Virus genome (UHGV): UHGV-1488538
Strand: one strand, 5' to 3'
Source of the DNA: a virus
DNA: 39,106 nt
Shown: positions 206-39,060 of the stretch, one piece after another
How positions within the stretch are numbered: the first letter of the stretch is position 1
How the letters are laid out: each line of letters opens with the position of its first letter
Program-made: the position numbers and the translations under genes
The notes under the pieces: generated by a model
The model's database searches: none
What the model was told of the DNA's origin: nothing
What the model saw: the letters and a program-made list of their open reading frames with translations, nothing else

Positions 206-245
206 GGTGACGGTATTACCTTAAAGGTATACTCTCATACCGTCA
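206..245. promoter_or_regulatory. Putative integrase arm-type sites: GGTGACGGTAT at 206-216 and inverted TGACGGTAT at 237-245
   Basis: Same 11-mer recurs at 38962-38972 next to attR; typical arrangement of arm sites flanking a tyrosine-integrase att core. Confidence 0.45.
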
Positions 246-5743: not shown

Positions 5744-5758
5744 TTACCGTTGAGGTAA
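5744..5758. promoter_or_regulatory. Operator TTACC-GTTGA-GGTAA (OL-like, over transcription start of leftward operon)
   Basis: Perfect 5+5 palindrome; lies just downstream of a TTGACA -35 (5781-5786, minus strand). Confidence 0.7.
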
Positions 5759-5805
5759 TAATTATGCGTATTTGGTTTGATGTCAATAGATATGAGTTAA
5801 AAAAA

Positions 5806-5820
5806 TTACCCATTAGGTAA
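5806..5820. promoter_or_regulatory. Operator TTACC-CATTA-GGTAA (OL-like, upstream of -35)
   Basis: Perfect palindrome about 20 bp upstream of the TTGACA -35. Confidence 0.7.
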
Positions 5821-5831
5821 TAGTATAGGCA

Positions 5832-5856
5832 ATAAAAAAGCCGCCAGAAGGCGGCT
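5832..5856 (-). terminator. Rho-independent terminator after repressor gene (GCCGCC-ttct-GGCGGC plus U-run on minus strand)
   Basis: 6-bp GC stem followed by T-tract on the minus strand, 20 bp past the repressor stop. Confidence 0.7.
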
Positions 5857-5877
5857 TACTTACTGAAGAGTATGATT

Positions 5878-6462
5878 TTATTGTTTGTTTTTTTCGTTCT
5901 GGTTGATGACAAATTCAATGTAACTTTCGATCTTTGCTTTCTCGGTTTCGGGTAACAATGCGTAGCGCGAGCGGTCATAGTTGATAGTCGCAGGGTCGTG
6001 CGGGTGAATCAGTAGTTCATATCCGTGACGCCCGAATGCGGATGCAACATTCTCCAGGGTGGAAATGGAAACGCTGACCTCATTGTTTAACAGGCGACTG
6101 ATTGTCACCTGGGCGACGCCGGATGCGCGGTGAAGTTTTCCCTGAGTTGAAAGGTCGCGGCTTTCACTCATCCAGCGTTCCAGGTTGTGAGCTGCCAGCT
6201 GACCAATGTCGCTTGGGCCGACAGGCTGAAAACCTTCCTGAGAAAGCGAGCGATCGATATCAAGCCAGTTACGGGGTTTATTGGCGGCAGCTTCAATTTT
6301 TCGCGCAACCTGGTCGCCGATAACCTTCTTGCCAAGAGCCCAGCGGTTTACCAGATTTGCCTGAGTTCCAAGTTTTTCTGCCATCCGCGTCTGAACACCA
6401 TTGAATTCACGGTCGATCAAGTCGTTGAGATTTTGCCTGCGGACGTCCTGGATACTTTTCAT
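5878..6462 (-). CDS. Immunity repressor, tandem HTH (XRE-like), no peptidase S24 domain
   Basis: 194 aa; two HTH-like segments (TRMAEKLGTQANLVNRWALGKK and ASGVAQVTISRLLNNEVSVSISTLENV); divergent from Cro-like gene with operator cluster between. Confidence 0.75.
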   Translation of the reverse strand: MKSIQDVRRQNLNDLIDREFNGVQTRMAEKLGTQANLVNRWALGKKVIGDQVARKIEAAANKPRNWLDIDRSLSQEGFQPVGPSDIGQLAAHNLERWMSESRDLSTQGKLHRASGVAQVTISRLLNNEVSVSISTLENVASAFGRHGYELLIHPHDPATINYDRSRYALLPETEKAKIESYIEFVINQNEKNKQ

Positions 6463-6517
6463 TTTCTGGAAAATCGCCTCATATATGAATCAGTAGATGA
6501 TTCAATTTAAAGCAATA

Positions 6518-6532
6518 TTACCCAACAGGTAA
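6518..6532. promoter_or_regulatory. Operator TTACC-CAACA-GGTAA (OR-like site 1)
   Basis: Perfect palindrome between divergent repressor and cro-like genes. Confidence 0.7.
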
Positions 6533-6534
6533 AT

Positions 6535-6549
6535 GCACCCCATAGGTAA
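6535..6549. promoter_or_regulatory. Degenerate operator GCACC-CCATA-GGTAA (OR-like site 2)
   Basis: One perfect half-site, 2 mismatches in the other; 3 bp from site 1. Confidence 0.4.
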
Positions 6550-6565
6550 CTATCCTTGATTTTTG

Positions 6566-6580
6566 TTACCTTATGGGTGA
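6566..6580. promoter_or_regulatory. Operator TTACC-TTATG-GGTGA (OR-like site 3, within spacer of putative cro promoter)
   Basis: 1 mismatch; sits between candidate -35 TTGATT (6556-6561) and -10 GAATAT (6579-6584). Confidence 0.55.
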
Positions 6581-6616
6581 ATATTTATTATCTGAAATAA
6601 ATATCAGGCAATAGCT

Positions 6617-6847
6617 ATGAGCGATAACGGACATTTCGATTTCAAAAAGCACTGGCTTGCACTTACTCCGGATGAGCGTGAAGCCTTCGCACAGGAAGCC
6701 GGAACGACGAGTCACTATATCCAGACTCACTTAACAGGTAAGCGCAAAATGCCAGGTAAGGTATTGATGAATGGGCTTTTTAAAGCCTGTAAAACAAGAC
6801 AATGGCTGCGCTCAAAAGCGGAACTGGCATACTTCTTCTACTCATGA
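6617..6847 (+). CDS. Cro-like small regulator (YdaS-like HTH)
   Basis: 76 aa; first rightward gene divergent from repressor. Confidence 0.6.
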   Translation: MSDNGHFDFKKHWLALTPDEREAFAQEAGTTSHYIQTHLTGKRKMPGKVLMNGLFKACKTRQWLRSKAELAYFFYS

Positions 6848-6902: not shown

Positions 6903-6917
6903 GTACCTCAAAGGTAA
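6903..6917. promoter_or_regulatory. Operator-like site GTACC-TCAAA-GGTAA
   Basis: 1 mismatch; immediately follows the terminator. Confidence 0.45.
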
Positions 6918-8836: not shown

Positions 8837-8848
8837 ACGCCTCGACAA

Positions 8849-8863
8849 TTACCTGTTAGGTAA
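8849..8863. promoter_or_regulatory. Operator TTACC-TGTTA-GGTAA
   Basis: Perfect palindrome about 20 bp upstream of candidate -35 TTGATT (8883-8888). Confidence 0.65.
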
Positions 8864-8910
8864 TAAAATATTCTAAAATCTATTGATTTCGTGTCTTATG
8901 TGGTTTTTAA

Positions 8911-8925
8911 TTACCTCAGGGGTAA
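8911..8925. promoter_or_regulatory. Operator TTACC-TCAGG-GGTAA overlapping RBS of gene 8929
   Basis: Perfect palindrome ending 3 nt before the ATG. Confidence 0.65.
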
Positions 8926-8928
8926 ATC

Positions 8929-9273
8929 ATGAGAAAACAGATACAGGCTCTTGGTCGACTCAAAACAGGTCAGATGAACAAAACAGAATCTGCGTATTGC
9001 CAGCACCTTGAGCAGCGTAAACGTGCAGGGGAAATCGCCTGGTATCGGTTCGAGGGTATCAAGCTGCGGTTAGCTGATAACACGTTTTATACGCCAGATT
9101 TCGCTGTGATGCTCGCCACCGGCGAGATGGAACTGCACGAAGTGAAAGGTTTCTGGACCGACGACGCCAGGGTGAAAACCAAAGTCGCCGCAGATCAGTA
9201 TCCGTTCCGAATCATCGGGGTAACGGTTAAGCCAAAGAAAGCAGGTGGTGGCTGGAACATCGAAGAGTTCTGA
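8929..9273 (+). CDS. Hypothetical protein, possible PD-(D/E)XK-type nuclease
   Basis: 114 aa; TPDFAV...ELHEVKG pattern suggests D...E.K nuclease motif; assignment tentative. Confidence 0.5.
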   Translation: MRKQIQALGRLKTGQMNKTESAYCQHLEQRKRAGEIAWYRFEGIKLRLADNTFYTPDFAVMLATGEMELHEVKGFWTDDARVKTKVAADQYPFRIIGVTVKPKKAGGGWNIEEF

Positions 9274-9334
9274 ATCGACGATCTTTTTAGTTATCAATGT
9301 AATCAATAAGTTATGTGGATAAGCGAGGGTAAAG

Positions 9335-11564: not shown

Positions 11565-11838
11565 CCTGCAACTTGCCGTCAAAGGTGAATACTTCGATGC
11601 CATCATTCGCGGAGAGAAAACGGAAGAGTATCGCCTGTGTAATGACTACTGGAATAAGCGAATTATGTTCAGGGATTATGACCGCCTGATTATCACAAAG
11701 GGATATCCGAAGCGCGAAGACTTCAGTCGCAGAATTGACGTCCCGTATAACGGATATGAAATAAAGACAATCACACATCCGCACTTCGGTGATAAACCGG
11801 TAAAGGTGTTCGCGATAAAGGTAAATATTGATGGCTAA
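11557..11838 (+). CDS. Hypothetical protein, possibly ASCH-domain
   Basis: 93 aa; tentative. Confidence 0.45.
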   Translation: MANLQLAVKGEYFDAIIRGEKTEEYRLCNDYWNKRIMFRDYDRLIITKGYPKREDFSRRIDVPYNGYEIKTITHPHFGDKPVKVFAIKVNIDG

Positions 11839-12169
11839 ATCAGCAGCAGAGCGCAAAGCCGCTCAGAGAGCCAGACAAGCTGCATCTGGTGTGCGTAAGC
11901 TGGAGATTGTGCTTGATGCTCAGGAAATTGAAATTCTGGAGCGTAACTGTGCCACGCGTCGCCCCGGGCGTGCGCCTTACGAATTTGGTGAGTATATAGC
12001 GTTACTGATCCGCCAGGATGATGCACGCGTGCACGGGCGTATAAAATCGATCAGCAGAACACGTTGCGGTAAGTGCGGCGAGAGAGTTCCAGTTAATTCA
12101 TGTCCGTGTAATGGTGACTCACAATGCTGGGTGACTAAAGGCTGGCATGAAACGAAATTAATAGTGTGA
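11828..12169 (+). CDS. Hypothetical basic protein with C-terminal zinc-ribbon (CGKCG...CPCNG); candidate late regulator
   Basis: 113 aa; last gene before terminator and terminase operon. Confidence 0.5.
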   Translation: MMAKSAAERKAAQRARQAASGVRKLEIVLDAQEIEILERNCATRRPGRAPYEFGEYIALLIRQDDARVHGRIKSISRTRCGKCGERVPVNSCPCNGDSQCWVTKGWHETKLIV

Positions 12170-12255: not shown

Positions 12256-12270
12256 TTACCACAACGGTAA
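12256..12270. promoter_or_regulatory. Operator TTACC-ACAAC-GGTAA in terminase 5' region
   Basis: Perfect palindrome 18 bp upstream of terminase small-subunit ATG. Confidence 0.65.
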
Positions 12271-12273
12271 CTA

Positions 12274-12288
12274 TTACCACGGTGGTTA
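12274..12288. promoter_or_regulatory. Operator-like TTACC-ACGGT-GGTTA overlapping terminase RBS and start
   Basis: 1 mismatch. Confidence 0.45.
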
Positions 12289-15462: not shown

Positions 15463-15477
15463 TTACCTGAAGGGTAA
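15463..15477. promoter_or_regulatory. Operator TTACC-TGAAG-GGTAA upstream of virion operon
   Basis: Perfect palindrome about 90 bp upstream of first virion-module gene. Confidence 0.65.
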
Positions 15478-15567
15478 TAATTTGTGCGTTAAATGTCAAC
15501 TGTCTACGATAAATAAATCATATGTGGTTAAATTGGTAATAATTTAATTACGTACGGAGTCATTGAT

Positions 15568-32891: not shown

Positions 32892-32932
32892 ACATCACCT
32901 CATAATATATAGATGCTTCTTTAAGCGGGATT

Positions 32933-32947
32933 TACCATTAGGGTAAA
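32933..32947. promoter_or_regulatory. Operator TTACC-ATTAG-GGTAA upstream of 211-aa gene
   Basis: Perfect palindrome about 42 bp upstream of start; coordinates +/-1. Confidence 0.65.
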
Positions 32948-33032: not shown

Positions 33033-33047
33033 TCACCCGTAAGGTAA
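33033..33047. promoter_or_regulatory. Operator-like TCACC-CGTAA-GGTAA
   Basis: 1 mismatch. Confidence 0.45.
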
Positions 33048-34026: not shown

Positions 34027-34128
34027 CCCGGGACGCCAATCCCGGCACTGGATTTTGCCAGTGCCCGATTACTATGGCACAAGAGGAGTGCGATGTAAAT
34101 TTACTGCAAAGGTAAATATAAGCACTCC
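34027..34128 (-). ncRNA. Candidate structured RNA / cis-regulatory leader upstream of antirepressor
   Basis: Three hairpins (34083-34128 AGGAGTGC...GCACTCCT; 34044-34065 GGCACTGG...CCAGTGCC; 34028-34045 CCGGG...CCCGG) then terminator; no ORF. Confidence 0.4.
34101..34115. promoter_or_regulatory. Operator-like TTACT-GCAAA-GGTAA inside leader hairpin
   Basis: 1 mismatch. Confidence 0.4.
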
Positions 34129-34146: not shown

Positions 34147-34419
34147 TTATCTGGTTTGTTTTCGTAATTGTTCGGCACAATAGTCGAGATGTGTTTGCAG
34201 ATCCTGCATAGACATCTGTGAGCTGGTGACGTAGTTAATCAGTGCAGTCAGTTCGGCAAGTGGGCCATCGACATTAAATCCATCCTTATCGAGATCCCGG
34301 AGTAATTTCATCAAGTGCGATCCCTCCACCAGTGACCTGACGCCTCCCGGCGTGTGAATCCTTTCGGTAAATCCCTCTTCCAGTGGATAGTGATACTGCT
34401 GCATCTTAATCTTCTCCAT
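34147..34419 (-). CDS. Small protein homologous to antirepressor C-terminal domain; LexA-controlled (candidate SOS antirepressor)
   Basis: 90 aa; about 45% identity by eye to Ant residues ~170-241 (IH.P.GV..L.E.S.LM.LL..L..DG..V.G..AELT, D.QTH..Y); LexA box directly upstream. Confidence 0.7.
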   Translation of the reverse strand: MEKIKMQQYHYPLEEGFTERIHTPGGVRSLVEGSHLMKLLRDLDKDGFNVDGPLAELTALINYVTSSQMSMQDLQTHLDYCAEQLRKQTR

Positions 34420-34424
34420 GCAAT

Positions 34425-34444
34425 AACTGTATATTTATACAGTA
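34425..34444. promoter_or_regulatory. LexA (SOS) box AACTGTATATTTATACAGTA
   Basis: CTGT-N8-ACAG with AT-rich spacer, near-consensus; overlaps putative -10 of small ant-like gene. Confidence 0.8.
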
Positions 34445-34481: not shown

Positions 34482-34496
34482 TTACCTGAAAGGTAA
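34482..34496. promoter_or_regulatory. Operator TTACC-TGAAA-GGTAA
   Basis: Perfect palindrome between LexA box and tailspike gene. Confidence 0.65.
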
Positions 34497-34600
34497 TATC
34501 TATTCATATTCACAGTCTTTCTATCCATATATGGTTTTTTGGGTAATAGAATAACCAGATATGCGGCGCAACGGGTGCTGCGACTATCTGGAGATTTAAC

Positions 34601-37063
34601 ATGACGGTCTCAACCGAAGTTGACCACAACGAATACACAGGTAACGGCGTTACGACATCATTTCCGTATACCTTCCGTATTTTCAAAAAATCCGACCTGG
34701 TTGTTCAGGTGTCTGACCTTAACGGTAACGTTACAAAACTAGTGCTGGATGCTGGTTATACGGTAACAGGGGCGGGAACTTATAGTGGCGGTGCAGTGGT
34801 TCTTCCGTCGCCGCTTGCTGCTGGCTGGCGAATCACGATAGAGCGTGTGCTTGATGTGGTGCAGGAGACTGATCTTCGCAATCAGGGAAAATTTTTCCCC
34901 GAAGTTCATGAGGATGCATTTGACTACCTGACGATGCTGATCCAGCGATGTTTTGGGTGGTTCAGACGTGCATTGATGAAACCATCTTTGCTTGCAAAAT
35001 ATTACGATGCAAAGCAAAACAGAATATCTAACCTTGCCGATCCATCACTTGAGCAGGACGCTGTAAATAATCGCTCAATGCGTAATTATGTCGATGCTGC
35101 AATCGCCGGAGTTATTGGTGGTTTTGGTTGGTTTATTCAGTATGGTTCTGGAGCGGTATACAGAACGTTCCAGGATAAGATGCGTGATGGTGTCAGCATT
35201 AAGGATTTTGGAGCTCAAAATGGAATCTTAAATGATAACAAGGATGCTTTTACAAAATCATTACATTCGTTTAGCAGTGTTTTTGTTCCGGAAGGGGTAT
35301 TCAATACATCTTTAGTTTCTCTTTCACGTTGTGGCTTGTACGGAACAGGTGGGGGAACGATAAAACAGTATGACAGAGATGGTAATCATCTGGTTTTTAA
35401 CATGCCCGATGGTGGCATGCTTAGTACGCTAACAATTATGGGAAATAAATCAGATGATAGTGTGCAGGGACACCAGGTGTCATTTTCAGGTGGCCATGAT
35501 GTATCGGTTAAAAATATCAGATTTACAAATACGCGAGGACCAGGATTTAGCTTGATCGCTTATCCGGATAATGGTATTCCGTCAGGTTACATTGTTAGAG
35601 ATATAAGAGGAGAGTATTTAGGGTTCGCAAATAATAAAAAAGCAGGTTGTGTGCTTTTTGATTCATCGCAAAATACGCTAATTGATGGTGTGATAGCCAG
35701 AAATTATCCTCAGTTTGGTGCAGTGGAACTTAAAACAGCAGCAAAATATAACATTGTCAGCAATGTTATTGGTGAAGAGTGTCAGCACGTTGTTTACAAT
35801 GGAACTGAGACGGAAACTGCCCCAACGAATAATATCATTAGCAGTGTAATGGCTAACAACCCAAAATACGCCGCAGTAGTTGTTGGCAAGGGGACTGGTA
35901 ACCTGATTTCGGATGTGCTGGTTGATTACTCTGAATCGGACGCAAAGCAGGCGCACGGCGTCACCGTTCAGGGAAATAATAATATTGCCAGTAATATTCT
36001 AATGACTGGGTGTGATGGGAAAAATGAATCAGGAGATCTGCAGGCATCTACAACCATTCGTTTCTTAGATGCTGCACGCAGTAATTATGCGTCAATATTC
36101 CCCATGTATAGTTCTTCCGGCGTGGTTACCTTCGAGGAAGGGTGTATCAGGAACTTTGTTGAAATTAAACATCCGGGTGACAGAAATAATATTCTGAGTT
36201 CTGCATCAGCGGTGACTGGTATTTCCAGTATAGACGGCACTACAAATAGCAATGTTGTTCACGTCCCTGCGCTTGGTCAGTACGTTGGGACTATGTCAGG
36301 GCGTTTTGAATGGTGGGTTAAATATTTTAACCTTGCTAACCAGACGCTTGTTTCTGCAGATAAATTCAGAATGCTTGCTGAAGGCGATGTATCTCTGGCT
36401 GTGGGAGGCGGTATAAGTTCGCAATTGAAATTATTCAATAGTGATAATACTAAAGGCACTATGTCGCTAATAAATGGAAATATTCGAATATCTACTGGAA
36501 ATTCAGAATATATACAGTTTTCTGATTCAGCCATGACACCATCGACAACGAATACTTATTCTCTTGGGTTGGCTGGTCGTGCATGGTCGGGGGGATTTAC
36601 CCAGTCAGCGTTTACGGTGCTGTCCGATGCGCGTTTCAAGACTGCTCCAGAGGTTATTGATGAGAAAATACTGGACGCATGGGAAAGAGTGGAATGGGTT
36701 TCATACCAGTACCTTGACAGGATCGAAGTGAAAGGTAAAGACGGAGCAAGATGGCACTTTGGTGCAGTTGCGCAGCATGTTATCAGTGTATTTCAGAATG
36801 AAGGCATAGATGTGTCACGACTGGCATTTATCTGTTATGACAAGTGGAATGAGACCCCGGCAGAATACAGGGATGTGACGGAAGAAGAGCATTCTGCAGG
36901 AGTTTACCCACTTATACAGACAAAGGTTCTGGTACGCGAAGCCGTCGAGGCTGGTGAATGTTACGGTATCCGTTATGAAGAGGCTCTGATTCTGGAATCT
37001 GCGATGATGAGACGCAGGGTTAAAAAGCTGGAAGAGCAAGTTTTGCAATTAACAGGGAATTGA
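34601..37063 (+). CDS. Tailspike with beta-helix depolymerase-like centre and C-terminal self-cleaving chaperone (S74-like) domain
   Basis: 820 aa; C-terminal LSDARFKTAPEVIDEKILDAWERVEWVSYQY... and coiled-coil tail match the intramolecular chaperone autoproteolysis domain. Confidence 0.8.
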   Translation: MTVSTEVDHNEYTGNGVTTSFPYTFRIFKKSDLVVQVSDLNGNVTKLVLDAGYTVTGAGTYSGGAVVLPSPLAAGWRITIERVLDVVQETDLRNQGKFFPEVHEDAFDYLTMLIQRCFGWFRRALMKPSLLAKYYDAKQNRISNLADPSLEQDAVNNRSMRNYVDAAIAGVIGGFGWFIQYGSGAVYRTFQDKMRDGVSIKDFGAQNGILNDNKDAFTKSLHSFSSVFVPEGVFNTSLVSLSRCGLYGTGGGTIKQYDRDGNHLVFNMPDGGMLSTLTIMGNKSDDSVQGHQVSFSGGHDVSVKNIRFTNTRGPGFSLIAYPDNGIPSGYIVRDIRGEYLGFANNKKAGCVLFDSSQNTLIDGVIARNYPQFGAVELKTAAKYNIVSNVIGEECQHVVYNGTETETAPTNNIISSVMANNPKYAAVVVGKGTGNLISDVLVDYSESDAKQAHGVTVQGNNNIASNILMTGCDGKNESGDLQASTTIRFLDAARSNYASIFPMYSSSGVVTFEEGCIRNFVEIKHPGDRNNILSSASAVTGISSIDGTTNSNVVHVPALGQYVGTMSGRFEWWVKYFNLANQTLVSADKFRMLAEGDVSLAVGGGISSQLKLFNSDNTKGTMSLINGNIRISTGNSEYIQFSDSAMTPSTTNTYSLGLAGRAWSGGFTQSAFTVLSDARFKTAPEVIDEKILDAWERVEWVSYQYLDRIEVKGKDGARWHFGAVAQHVISVFQNEGIDVSRLAFICYDKWNETPAEYRDVTEEEHSAGVYPLIQTKVLVREAVEAGECYGIRYEEALILESAMMRRRVKKLEEQVLQLTGN

Positions 37064-39043: not shown

Positions 39044-39060
39044 ATTGAGTGGGAATGATT
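39044..39060. repeat. attR core: 17-bp direct repeat ATTGAGTGGGAATGATT
   Basis: Exact copy of 66-82; followed by a host-type terminator hairpin 39086-39106. Confidence 0.8.

Follow-up and report, generated by a model that had tools for sequence, protein, structure and literature searches.

The closest described counterparts of the locus examined here are the lysogeny switches of phages SPC32H and ε15. According to secondary literature, the SPC32H repressor Rep binds palindromic DNA sites as a tetramer, dimers binding weakly, and its DNA-binding pairs are formed from different dimers (PMC9638917). The antirepressor Ant disassembles this tetramer (PMC9638917, PMC9986798), and the C-terminal domain of Rep serves both in tetramerisation and in Ant binding (PMC9986798). 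For ε15, the RefSeq record NC_004775.2 contains seven 'protein_bind / repressor / lysogeny' features with the sequence (A)TTACC-N5-GGTAAT. Here we analyse a 39,106-nt stretch of viral DNA, UHGV virus genome UHGV-1488538 (hereafter the window), in which the 15-bp palindrome TTACC-N5-GGTAA recurs. We propose that the palindromes are, with high probability, operators of the prophage lysogeny repressor Rep encoded at 5878-6462, and that they belong to the known Rep/Ant/LexA lysis-lysogeny switch.

As read from its sequence, the window is a complete phiV10/ε15-like podovirus (Uetakevirus) prophage that occupies the guaA 3' end and is bordered by short stretches of host DNA. Its immunity region is 97-98% identical to that of the phiV10-like Escherichia podoviruses of this genus (phiV10, PAS61, ZX5 and TL-2011b). 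A 17-bp attachment core, ATTGAGTGGGAATGATT, is present at 66-82 and 39044-39060, and its location near both window ends indicates a complete integrated prophage. The same core has been reported for integration of phiV10, ε15 and ZX5 at the guaA 3' end (PMC9782041).

Distribution of the palindrome in the window and in related genomes

The palindrome TTACCNNNNNGGTAA (TTACC-N5-GGTAA) has nine exact copies in the window, at 5744, 5806, 6518, 8849, 8911, 12256, 15463, 32932 and 34482, against an expectation of 0.01, and none of 100 dinucleotide shuffles reached nine. Allowing up to one mismatch gives 17 copies against 0.52 expected, again matched in none of the 100 shuffles; those with one mismatch start at 216, 6566, 6903, 12274, 33033 and 34101, and also at 34714 and 37260. 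When gene calls are taken over from related records, intergenic DNA makes up 8.0% of the window; it holds all nine exact copies (P ~1e-10) and 15 of the 17 with no more than one mismatch (P ~4e-15). The original prediction of a palindrome recurring about 16 times, always between genes, is therefore confirmed as to recurrence, and as to location for every exact copy; the exceptions are 34714 and 37260, both intragenic and both missing from the positions first listed. The other listed positions are correct, save that the copy given at 32933 starts at 32932 and that the supposed half-site at 6535 is a full 15-mer, GCACCCCATAGGTAA, at 6535-6549, with two mismatches.

The copies at 34714 (in the tailspike gene) and 37260 (in a membrane protein gene) were rejected as operators: both are intragenic, relatives lack them, and two such copies are compatible with the 0.52 expected by chance. 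A wider, degenerate operator set was likewise rejected, since copies with two mismatches occur at equal density within and between genes, which limits the real set to about 16 sites; only 6535 was kept, because an exact ε15 site occupies the syntenic position. The 16 intergenic sites (nine exact, six with one mismatch, one with two) give the consensus a-TTACC-N5-GGTAA-t, in which every site has ACC and GGT and the spacer has an A+T content of 68%.

Chance, base composition or sites for a host factor could in principle produce such a pattern, and one exact copy does occur in 100 kb of Escherichia coli K-12 DNA, together with four one-mismatch copies. However, every one of these host copies is intragenic, the shuffles never reach the observed counts, and the sites in the window are syntenic in phages of four host genera, so that we regard this explanation as having almost no likelihood. 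Counting the motif in host and shuffled DNA had been proposed beforehand as a check, and the outcome, with sparse and exclusively intragenic copies in the host and no shuffle at the observed level, favours a phage-specific motif.

The related phages carry the same motif. A de novo count of all 5-N(0-12)-5 palindromes in each genome placed TTACC-N5-GGTAA far ahead of any other palindrome in phiV10 (8 copies), ε15 (11), the Enterobacter phage Tyrion (9) and the Klebsiella phage BUCT711 (9), whose repressors are 100%, 42%, 78% and 45% identical to that of the window, respectively; it was also the top-enriched palindrome in the SPC32H-type phage and in six enterobacterial prophages. Operators are syntenic across phages of four host genera and keep their distances to genes. 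In five of five genomes sites lie at -98 from the head operon and at -73 and -11 from the DUF1064 or RuvC gene, whichever of the two follows; further conserved distances are -112 to -114 from the tailspike gene, -26/-28 and -8/-10 from terS, and +62/63 from the rep start. Six of the seven annotated ε15 sites have a match in the window at the same gene-relative distance, namely those at terS, the head operon, ant/tailspike and the middle operon and two at the leftward promoter PL. The seventh, a third ε15 PL site, has no counterpart because the window has two sites there.

The palindrome had first been described as unfamiliar, a novelty that does not survive this comparison: it is a genus-wide Uetakevirus operator, annotated in ε15. 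For ε15 and SPC32H, the motif, its spread over the genome and the Rep/Ant/LexA switch had been recorded before, given the ε15 annotation at the same positions and the structurally characterised Rep/Ant pair. Operator annotation is absent from the phiV10 and PAS61 records, and the ZX5 paper defines no operators (PMC9782041). A literature full-text search for the motif or for Uetakevirus repressor sites returned nothing specific.

Beyond these phages, a scan of bacterial genomes, with each species represented by one, yielded six more homologues that match Rep over its full length, in Superficieibacter, Erwinia, Klebsiella, Citrobacter (two) and Scandinavium. At every one of these loci, 4-8 exact motif copies lie within 6 kb, in the same layout. 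Five homologues restricted to the N-terminal domain (Paraburkholderia, Hydrogenovibrio, Thiomicrospira) differ in helix 3 and have no TTACC palindromes nearby, and no alternative operator could be called for them.

Rep, Ant, a likely second antirepressor and other candidate binders

The genes and sites of the regulatory system that bear on the identity of the binder are as follows.

5878..6462, minus strand: rep, lysogeny repressor, 194 aa, with an N-terminal helix-turn-helix (HTH) and a C-terminal HTH_3-like domain
6617..6847, plus strand: cro-like small regulator, matching phrog_35 'transcriptional repressor' (E=5.6e-13)
34147..34419, minus strand: ant, SPC32H-type small antirepressor, 90 aa, matching PDB 5D50_E (E=1.7e-47)
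34425..34444, no strand: LexA box AACTGTATATTTATACAGTA, consensus, five bases upstream of the ant start codon
33121..33846, minus strand: Bro-N protein with an Ant-like C-terminal domain (Pfam Bro-N, E=1e-19)
34143-34115, minus strand: Bro-N promoter-like site, TTGAAA, 17 nt, TATATT, facing the Bro-N gene
34101..34115, no strand: Bro-N operator, one mismatch, abutting the -10 of the Bro-N promoter

Residues 1-190 of Rep align with the SPC32H repressor (PDB 5D50_A, E=4e-42), making the two full-length homologues, and Pfam matches are to YdaS/Cro-like (residues 21-61) and HTH_3 (residues 106-147). An S24 peptidase domain was not found in a Pfam search of the 194 residues, which returned HTH-type families only. 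In 2013 Kim and Ryu reportedly found that SPC32H Rep escapes cleavage in the SOS response and that LexA represses ant, and the abstract of a 2016 PNAS paper by Kim reportedly identifies the N-terminal domain of SPC32H Rep as the DNA-binding domain. The tandem HTH arrangement of the original prediction is thus present in the sequence, but the second domain corresponds to the one to which tetramerisation and Ant binding are ascribed in SPC32H (PMC9986798). Five aligned Rep proteins, with overall identities of 42-78%, all share the residues N36-L-V-N-R-W41. This NLVNRW segment (residues 36-41) lies inside the Cro-like HTH match and is likely the recognition helix; its invariance fits the invariant TTACC/GGTAA half-site.

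Rep is 100% identical to the phiV10 and ZX5 repressors (tblastn), in agreement with the reported identity of the latter two (PMC9782041). Over-expression of the ZX5 repressor left no free phage and lowered endolysin and holin transcripts by 99.99% and 99.97%, respectively (PMC9782041). The proposal that the product of 5878-6462 is the candidate binder gains support from its homology to SPC32H Rep and from the labelling of the ε15 sites as repressor-binding, and we predict that Rep of this phage would bind exactly these sites. All the sequence-testable hallmarks of the ε15/SPC32H Rep operator family were found in the window, that is, the palindrome, its syntenic positions, a linked full-length Rep, and Ant with a LexA box.

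Several points weigh against this assignment. The ε15 repressor-site labels are record annotation and may be experimental or predicted. A sigma-70 scan found no promoter at 15463 (plus strand), 32932/33033 or 34482. The site at 216 overlaps an integrase arm-type repeat, GTGACGGTAT. Finally, the cro-like protein is 76% identical to its ε15 counterpart and Rep 42%, and with the cro-like protein the more conserved of the two, co-conservation alone does not single out Rep.

This last point bears on whether the main binder might be another conserved regulator, the leading candidate being the cro-like protein (6617-6847), with a gp49-like protein (11831-12169) as a second. The cro-like protein falls in a phrog annotated as a transcriptional repressor and, at 76% identity to ε15 gp39, is conserved like the motif; the gp49-like protein matches phrog_536 'transcriptional regulator'. 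In lambdoid phages Cro and CI share operators. A solved-structure homologue of the cro-like protein was searched for and none was found. However, the ε15 record gives the sites to the repressor, binding of SPC32H Rep to palindromic sites has been reported (PMC9638917), and the sites flank rep in a classic autoregulatory layout. In addition, over-expression of Rep alone shuts off late transcripts in ZX5 (PMC9782041). Shared binding by Rep and the cro-like protein would complement, not replace, the assignment to Rep, and we consider it improbable that either regulator takes the place of Rep as the main binder.

The partner of Rep is also encoded. Ant is near-identical to SPC32H Ant over 83 aligned residues, and the LexA box preceding it is conserved in ε15, SPC32H and Tyrion. 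As a separate observation, identity between the Rep proteins is only ~42%, their C-terminal domain (bound by Ant in SPC32H) included, so that the two partners have diverged at very different rates. Residues 156-233 of the Bro-N protein are 42% identical to Ant (E=6e-17), and phrog_450 is common to both proteins. Tyrion has an exact copy of the palindrome at the place of the 34101 operator. We suggest that the Bro-N/Ant protein is likely a second antirepressor that would itself be controlled by Rep.

Probable operators at promoters and at dispersed intergenic sites

The immunity region and the DUF1064 (middle) operon contain the following sites, where OL and OR denote the left and right operator regions and PR the rightward promoter.

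5744..5758, no strand: OL downstream operator, exact, kept in all relatives
5806..5820, no strand: OL upstream operator, exact, 19 nt upstream of the PL -35 and 62 bp from 5744
5758..5786, minus strand: PL promoter-like site, TTGACA (5786-5781), 17 nt, AATTAT (5763-5758)
6518..6532, no strand: OR site 1, exact, nearest rep
6535..6549, no strand: OR site 2, two mismatches (GCACC...GGTAA), 17 bp from site 1
6566..6580, no strand: OR site 3, one mismatch (GGTGA), inside the PR core, 31 bp from site 2
6556..6591, plus strand: PR promoter region, with a conserved -35 TTGATT (6556-6561)
6903..6917, no strand: site after the cro-like gene, one mismatch (GTACC), directly past the terminator of that gene
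8849..8863, no strand: DUF1064 operon upstream operator, exact
8883..8911, plus strand: DUF1064 promoter-like site, TTGATT, 17 nt, TTTAAT, read from sequence
8911..8925, no strand: DUF1064 downstream operator, exact, 62 bp from 8849, overlapping the ribosome-binding region of the gene at 8929

At the PL, PR, DUF1064 and Bro promoters, the promoter-like hexamers are overlapped or directly adjoined by operators. The OL-like pair foreseen around a TTGACA -35 is present, with sites 5744 and 5806 flanking the PL -35 and -10; the last T of this -10 is the first base of the operator 5758-5744, and TTGACA and ATTAT are conserved in five genomes. The OR-like triplet expected between the divergent repressor and cro-like genes was likewise recovered, at 6518, 6535 and 6566, the third site overlapping the PR core. 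The 17-bp spacing to OR site 2 is the same in ε15, SPC32H and BUCT711, each of which has an exact copy there. At PR the promoter scan prefers TTGTTA, 17 nt, TATTAT (6563-6591). The site at 6903 has a counterpart in Tyrion with the identical mismatch and distance, and one in BUCT711. Just downstream of the PR -10, at the PR +1, lies the near-palindrome CTGAAATAAATATCAG (6594-6609), which is kept in Tyrion and absent from ε15, SPC32H and BUCT711; it could be a weak LexA-like site, with the outline CTG-N10-CAG, or a site for the cro-like protein.

The DUF1064 promoter-like site, on the plus strand, repeats the PL layout base for base: an operator, 19 nt, the -35, 17 nt, and a -10 whose last T opens the second operator. 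It was not listed by the scan because position 2 of its -10 is T. The alternative given by the scan, TCGACA, 16 nt, TAAAAT (8842-8869), has a -35 that is not conserved in relatives, whereas the TTGA and the -10 of the site described here are conserved. At both promoters the two operators are spaced 62 bp centre to centre (61-63) in 11 of 11 related genomes and prophages examined.

The motif might instead belong to the promoters themselves, for instance as a recognition sequence that RNA polymerase uses together with a phage-encoded factor. In favour of this, GGTAAT(A) frequently merges into a hexamer resembling a -10, the first T of the motif is the final base of the -10 at several sites, and some sites are accompanied by a second conserved element, ATATGTGGTT. 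However, the motif is a symmetric palindrome, as is typical of dimeric HTH binding, and its position varies from upstream of the -35, through the promoter core and downstream of the -10, to the ribosome-binding site. This symmetry and variable placement relative to the hexamers make a core promoter role very unlikely.

The remaining candidate Rep operators are dispersed over the genome.

216..230, no strand: one mismatch (GGTAT), 50 bp upstream of int
12256..12270, no strand: terS operator, exact, 26 bp upstream of the terminase small subunit gene
12274..12288, no strand: second terS operator, one mismatch, 18 bp from 12256, ending at the terS ATG
15463..15477, no strand: head operon operator, exact, 98 bp upstream of the head operon
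32932..32946, no strand: mosaic-region operator, exact, upstream of a leftward 211-aa gene (32891)
33033..33047, no strand: second mosaic-region site, one mismatch (TCACC), 101 bp from 32932
34482..34496, no strand: ant/tailspike operator, exact, between the divergent ant and tailspike genes

The ε15 counterparts of 12256, 15463 and 34482 are annotated as repressor-binding. Roles for the sites at 15463 (rightward), 32932/33033, 34482, 12256 and 216 are proposed from synteny only, and candidate hexamers in the 12256 and 216 regions were read by eye. In the phiV10 and PAS61 records terS starts at a TTG (window 12210), which places both 12256 and 12274 within the coding sequence. In ε15, SPC32H and Tyrion the start lies directly after the second site (window ATG 12288/12291), and the phiV10/PAS61 start has probably been called 26-27 codons too early.

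Next to the head operon, the minus strand at 15471-15499 reads TTGACA, 17 nt, TACCCT, with the -10 inside operator 15463 and the same arrangement in ε15, which suggests a Rep-controlled leftward promoter for a p03-like gene; at the equivalent place SPC32H carries a gene for tRNA-Arg. The element (c)ATATGTGGTT occurs at 8898-8907, 15522-15531 and 34529-34538, and also at 9313. It precedes the DUF1064 gene, the head operon and the tailspike gene, with an operator or an isolated GGTAAT half-site following 3-9 nt downstream. Ahead of the head operon, the next 60 bp after the element are nearly invariant across five phages, and the element may be an activator site or a late-promoter element.

Site 216 is the weakest member of the set, and its standing as an operator is uncertain. 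Its counterpart lies at -50 from int in all relatives, with the GGTAT mismatch kept, and at this position the ε15 record annotates integrase and RNase III sites and no repressor site. The overlap with the integrase arm-type repeat leaves its assignment ambiguous. This repeat, whose arm-type label is taken from ε15, occurs upstream of and inside int at 207-216, 442-451 and 532-541, and inverted at 237-245 and 785-794. Between them, the copies at 207-216 and 237-245 make up an inverted repeat of 9 bp, within which lie site 216 and a -10-like TATACT (228-233).

The proposed switch in comparison with other phages

In the lysogen, Rep tetramers would occupy about 15 operators located in or close to the promoters of almost all transcription units. 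The units occupied would be PL, PR/PRM, the region after the cro-like gene, the DUF1064 operon, terS, the head region, the mosaic 211-aa gene, the Bro-N/Ant fusion gene, the ant/tailspike region and possibly int. Rep at most promoters agrees with the near-total loss of late transcripts on Rep over-production (PMC9782041). Upon DNA damage, the SOS response would cause LexA to leave the box before ant, allowing Ant to be made. Ant would then bind the C-terminal domain of Rep and break the tetramer, so that all operators would be vacated together. These induction steps, LexA release and the action of Ant on Rep, are drawn from the literature and from homology. Once Ant has acted, the de-repressed Bro-N/Ant gene would reinforce the switch.

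With ε15 and SPC32H (PDB 5D50, 5D4Z) the window shares the half-sites, the 5-bp spacer, syntenic positions, homologous Rep and Ant, and the LexA box before ant. It differs from ε15 in that Rep is 42% identical overall, with the C-terminal domain the most diverged, in that the middle OR site has decayed to two mismatches, and in having two PL sites instead of three. The window also has extra sites at 32932 and 33033 in the mosaic region and at 34101 before the Bro-N/Ant gene, while the ε15 site upstream of the lysis cassette has no window counterpart at one mismatch or fewer. As at lambda OL/OR, three operators separate a repressor gene from a divergently transcribed cro-like gene, a leftward early promoter also carries operators, and repression is by promoter occlusion. 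However, the half-site sequence is unrelated, and in the window operators are also found at the packaging, head and tailspike regions. Unlike lambda CI, Rep has no S24 autocleavage domain and its homologue is inactivated by an antirepressor, which places it outside the CI family.

A genome-wide spread of operators combined with an antirepressor system is also a feature of phage P1, in which C1 operators are dispersed over the genome and control many scattered units. C1 and Rep are unrelated proteins, and the 17-mers that serve as operators in P1 are asymmetric. The many repressor sites also recall mycobacteriophage L5, whose gp71 stoperators are numerous, asymmetric, orientation-dependent and located inside transcribed regions. 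Sites 8911 and 12256/12274 lie downstream of promoters and could act as roadblocks. However, the window sites are palindromic and located at promoters, and so differ from stoperators.

For annotation, the value of this analysis lies in the operators of the phiV10 lineage and in a corrected terS start. The site map also provides a list of Rep-controlled promoters for phiV10-based reporter-phage engineering or induction studies, and two details of the known switch are open to testing, namely the two-operator promoter layout with its 62-bp spacing and the likely Rep-controlled second antirepressor.

Two further proposals follow, which we put forward together only tentatively, as their joint truth is possible but rather doubtful: that the genus forms one immunity group at the DNA level, and that one Rep tetramer clamps a two-operator promoter. 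We found no description of either, nor of the 62-bp layout shared by PL and DUF1064, in the literature covered, which did not include the primary ε15 and SPC32H papers. Under the first proposal, Uetakeviruses of Escherichia, Salmonella, Klebsiella and Enterobacter share the half-site and the recognition helix despite repressor identities as low as 42%, and specificity would then reside in the Rep C-terminal domain and its pairing with Ant. Under the second, a single Rep tetramer would bridge the operators of each 62-bp pair, as suggested by its two DNA-binding pairs and by the conserved spacing of about six helical turns. The PL and DUF1064 promoters would then be wrapped, instead of being occupied by cooperative dimers in the manner of lambda.

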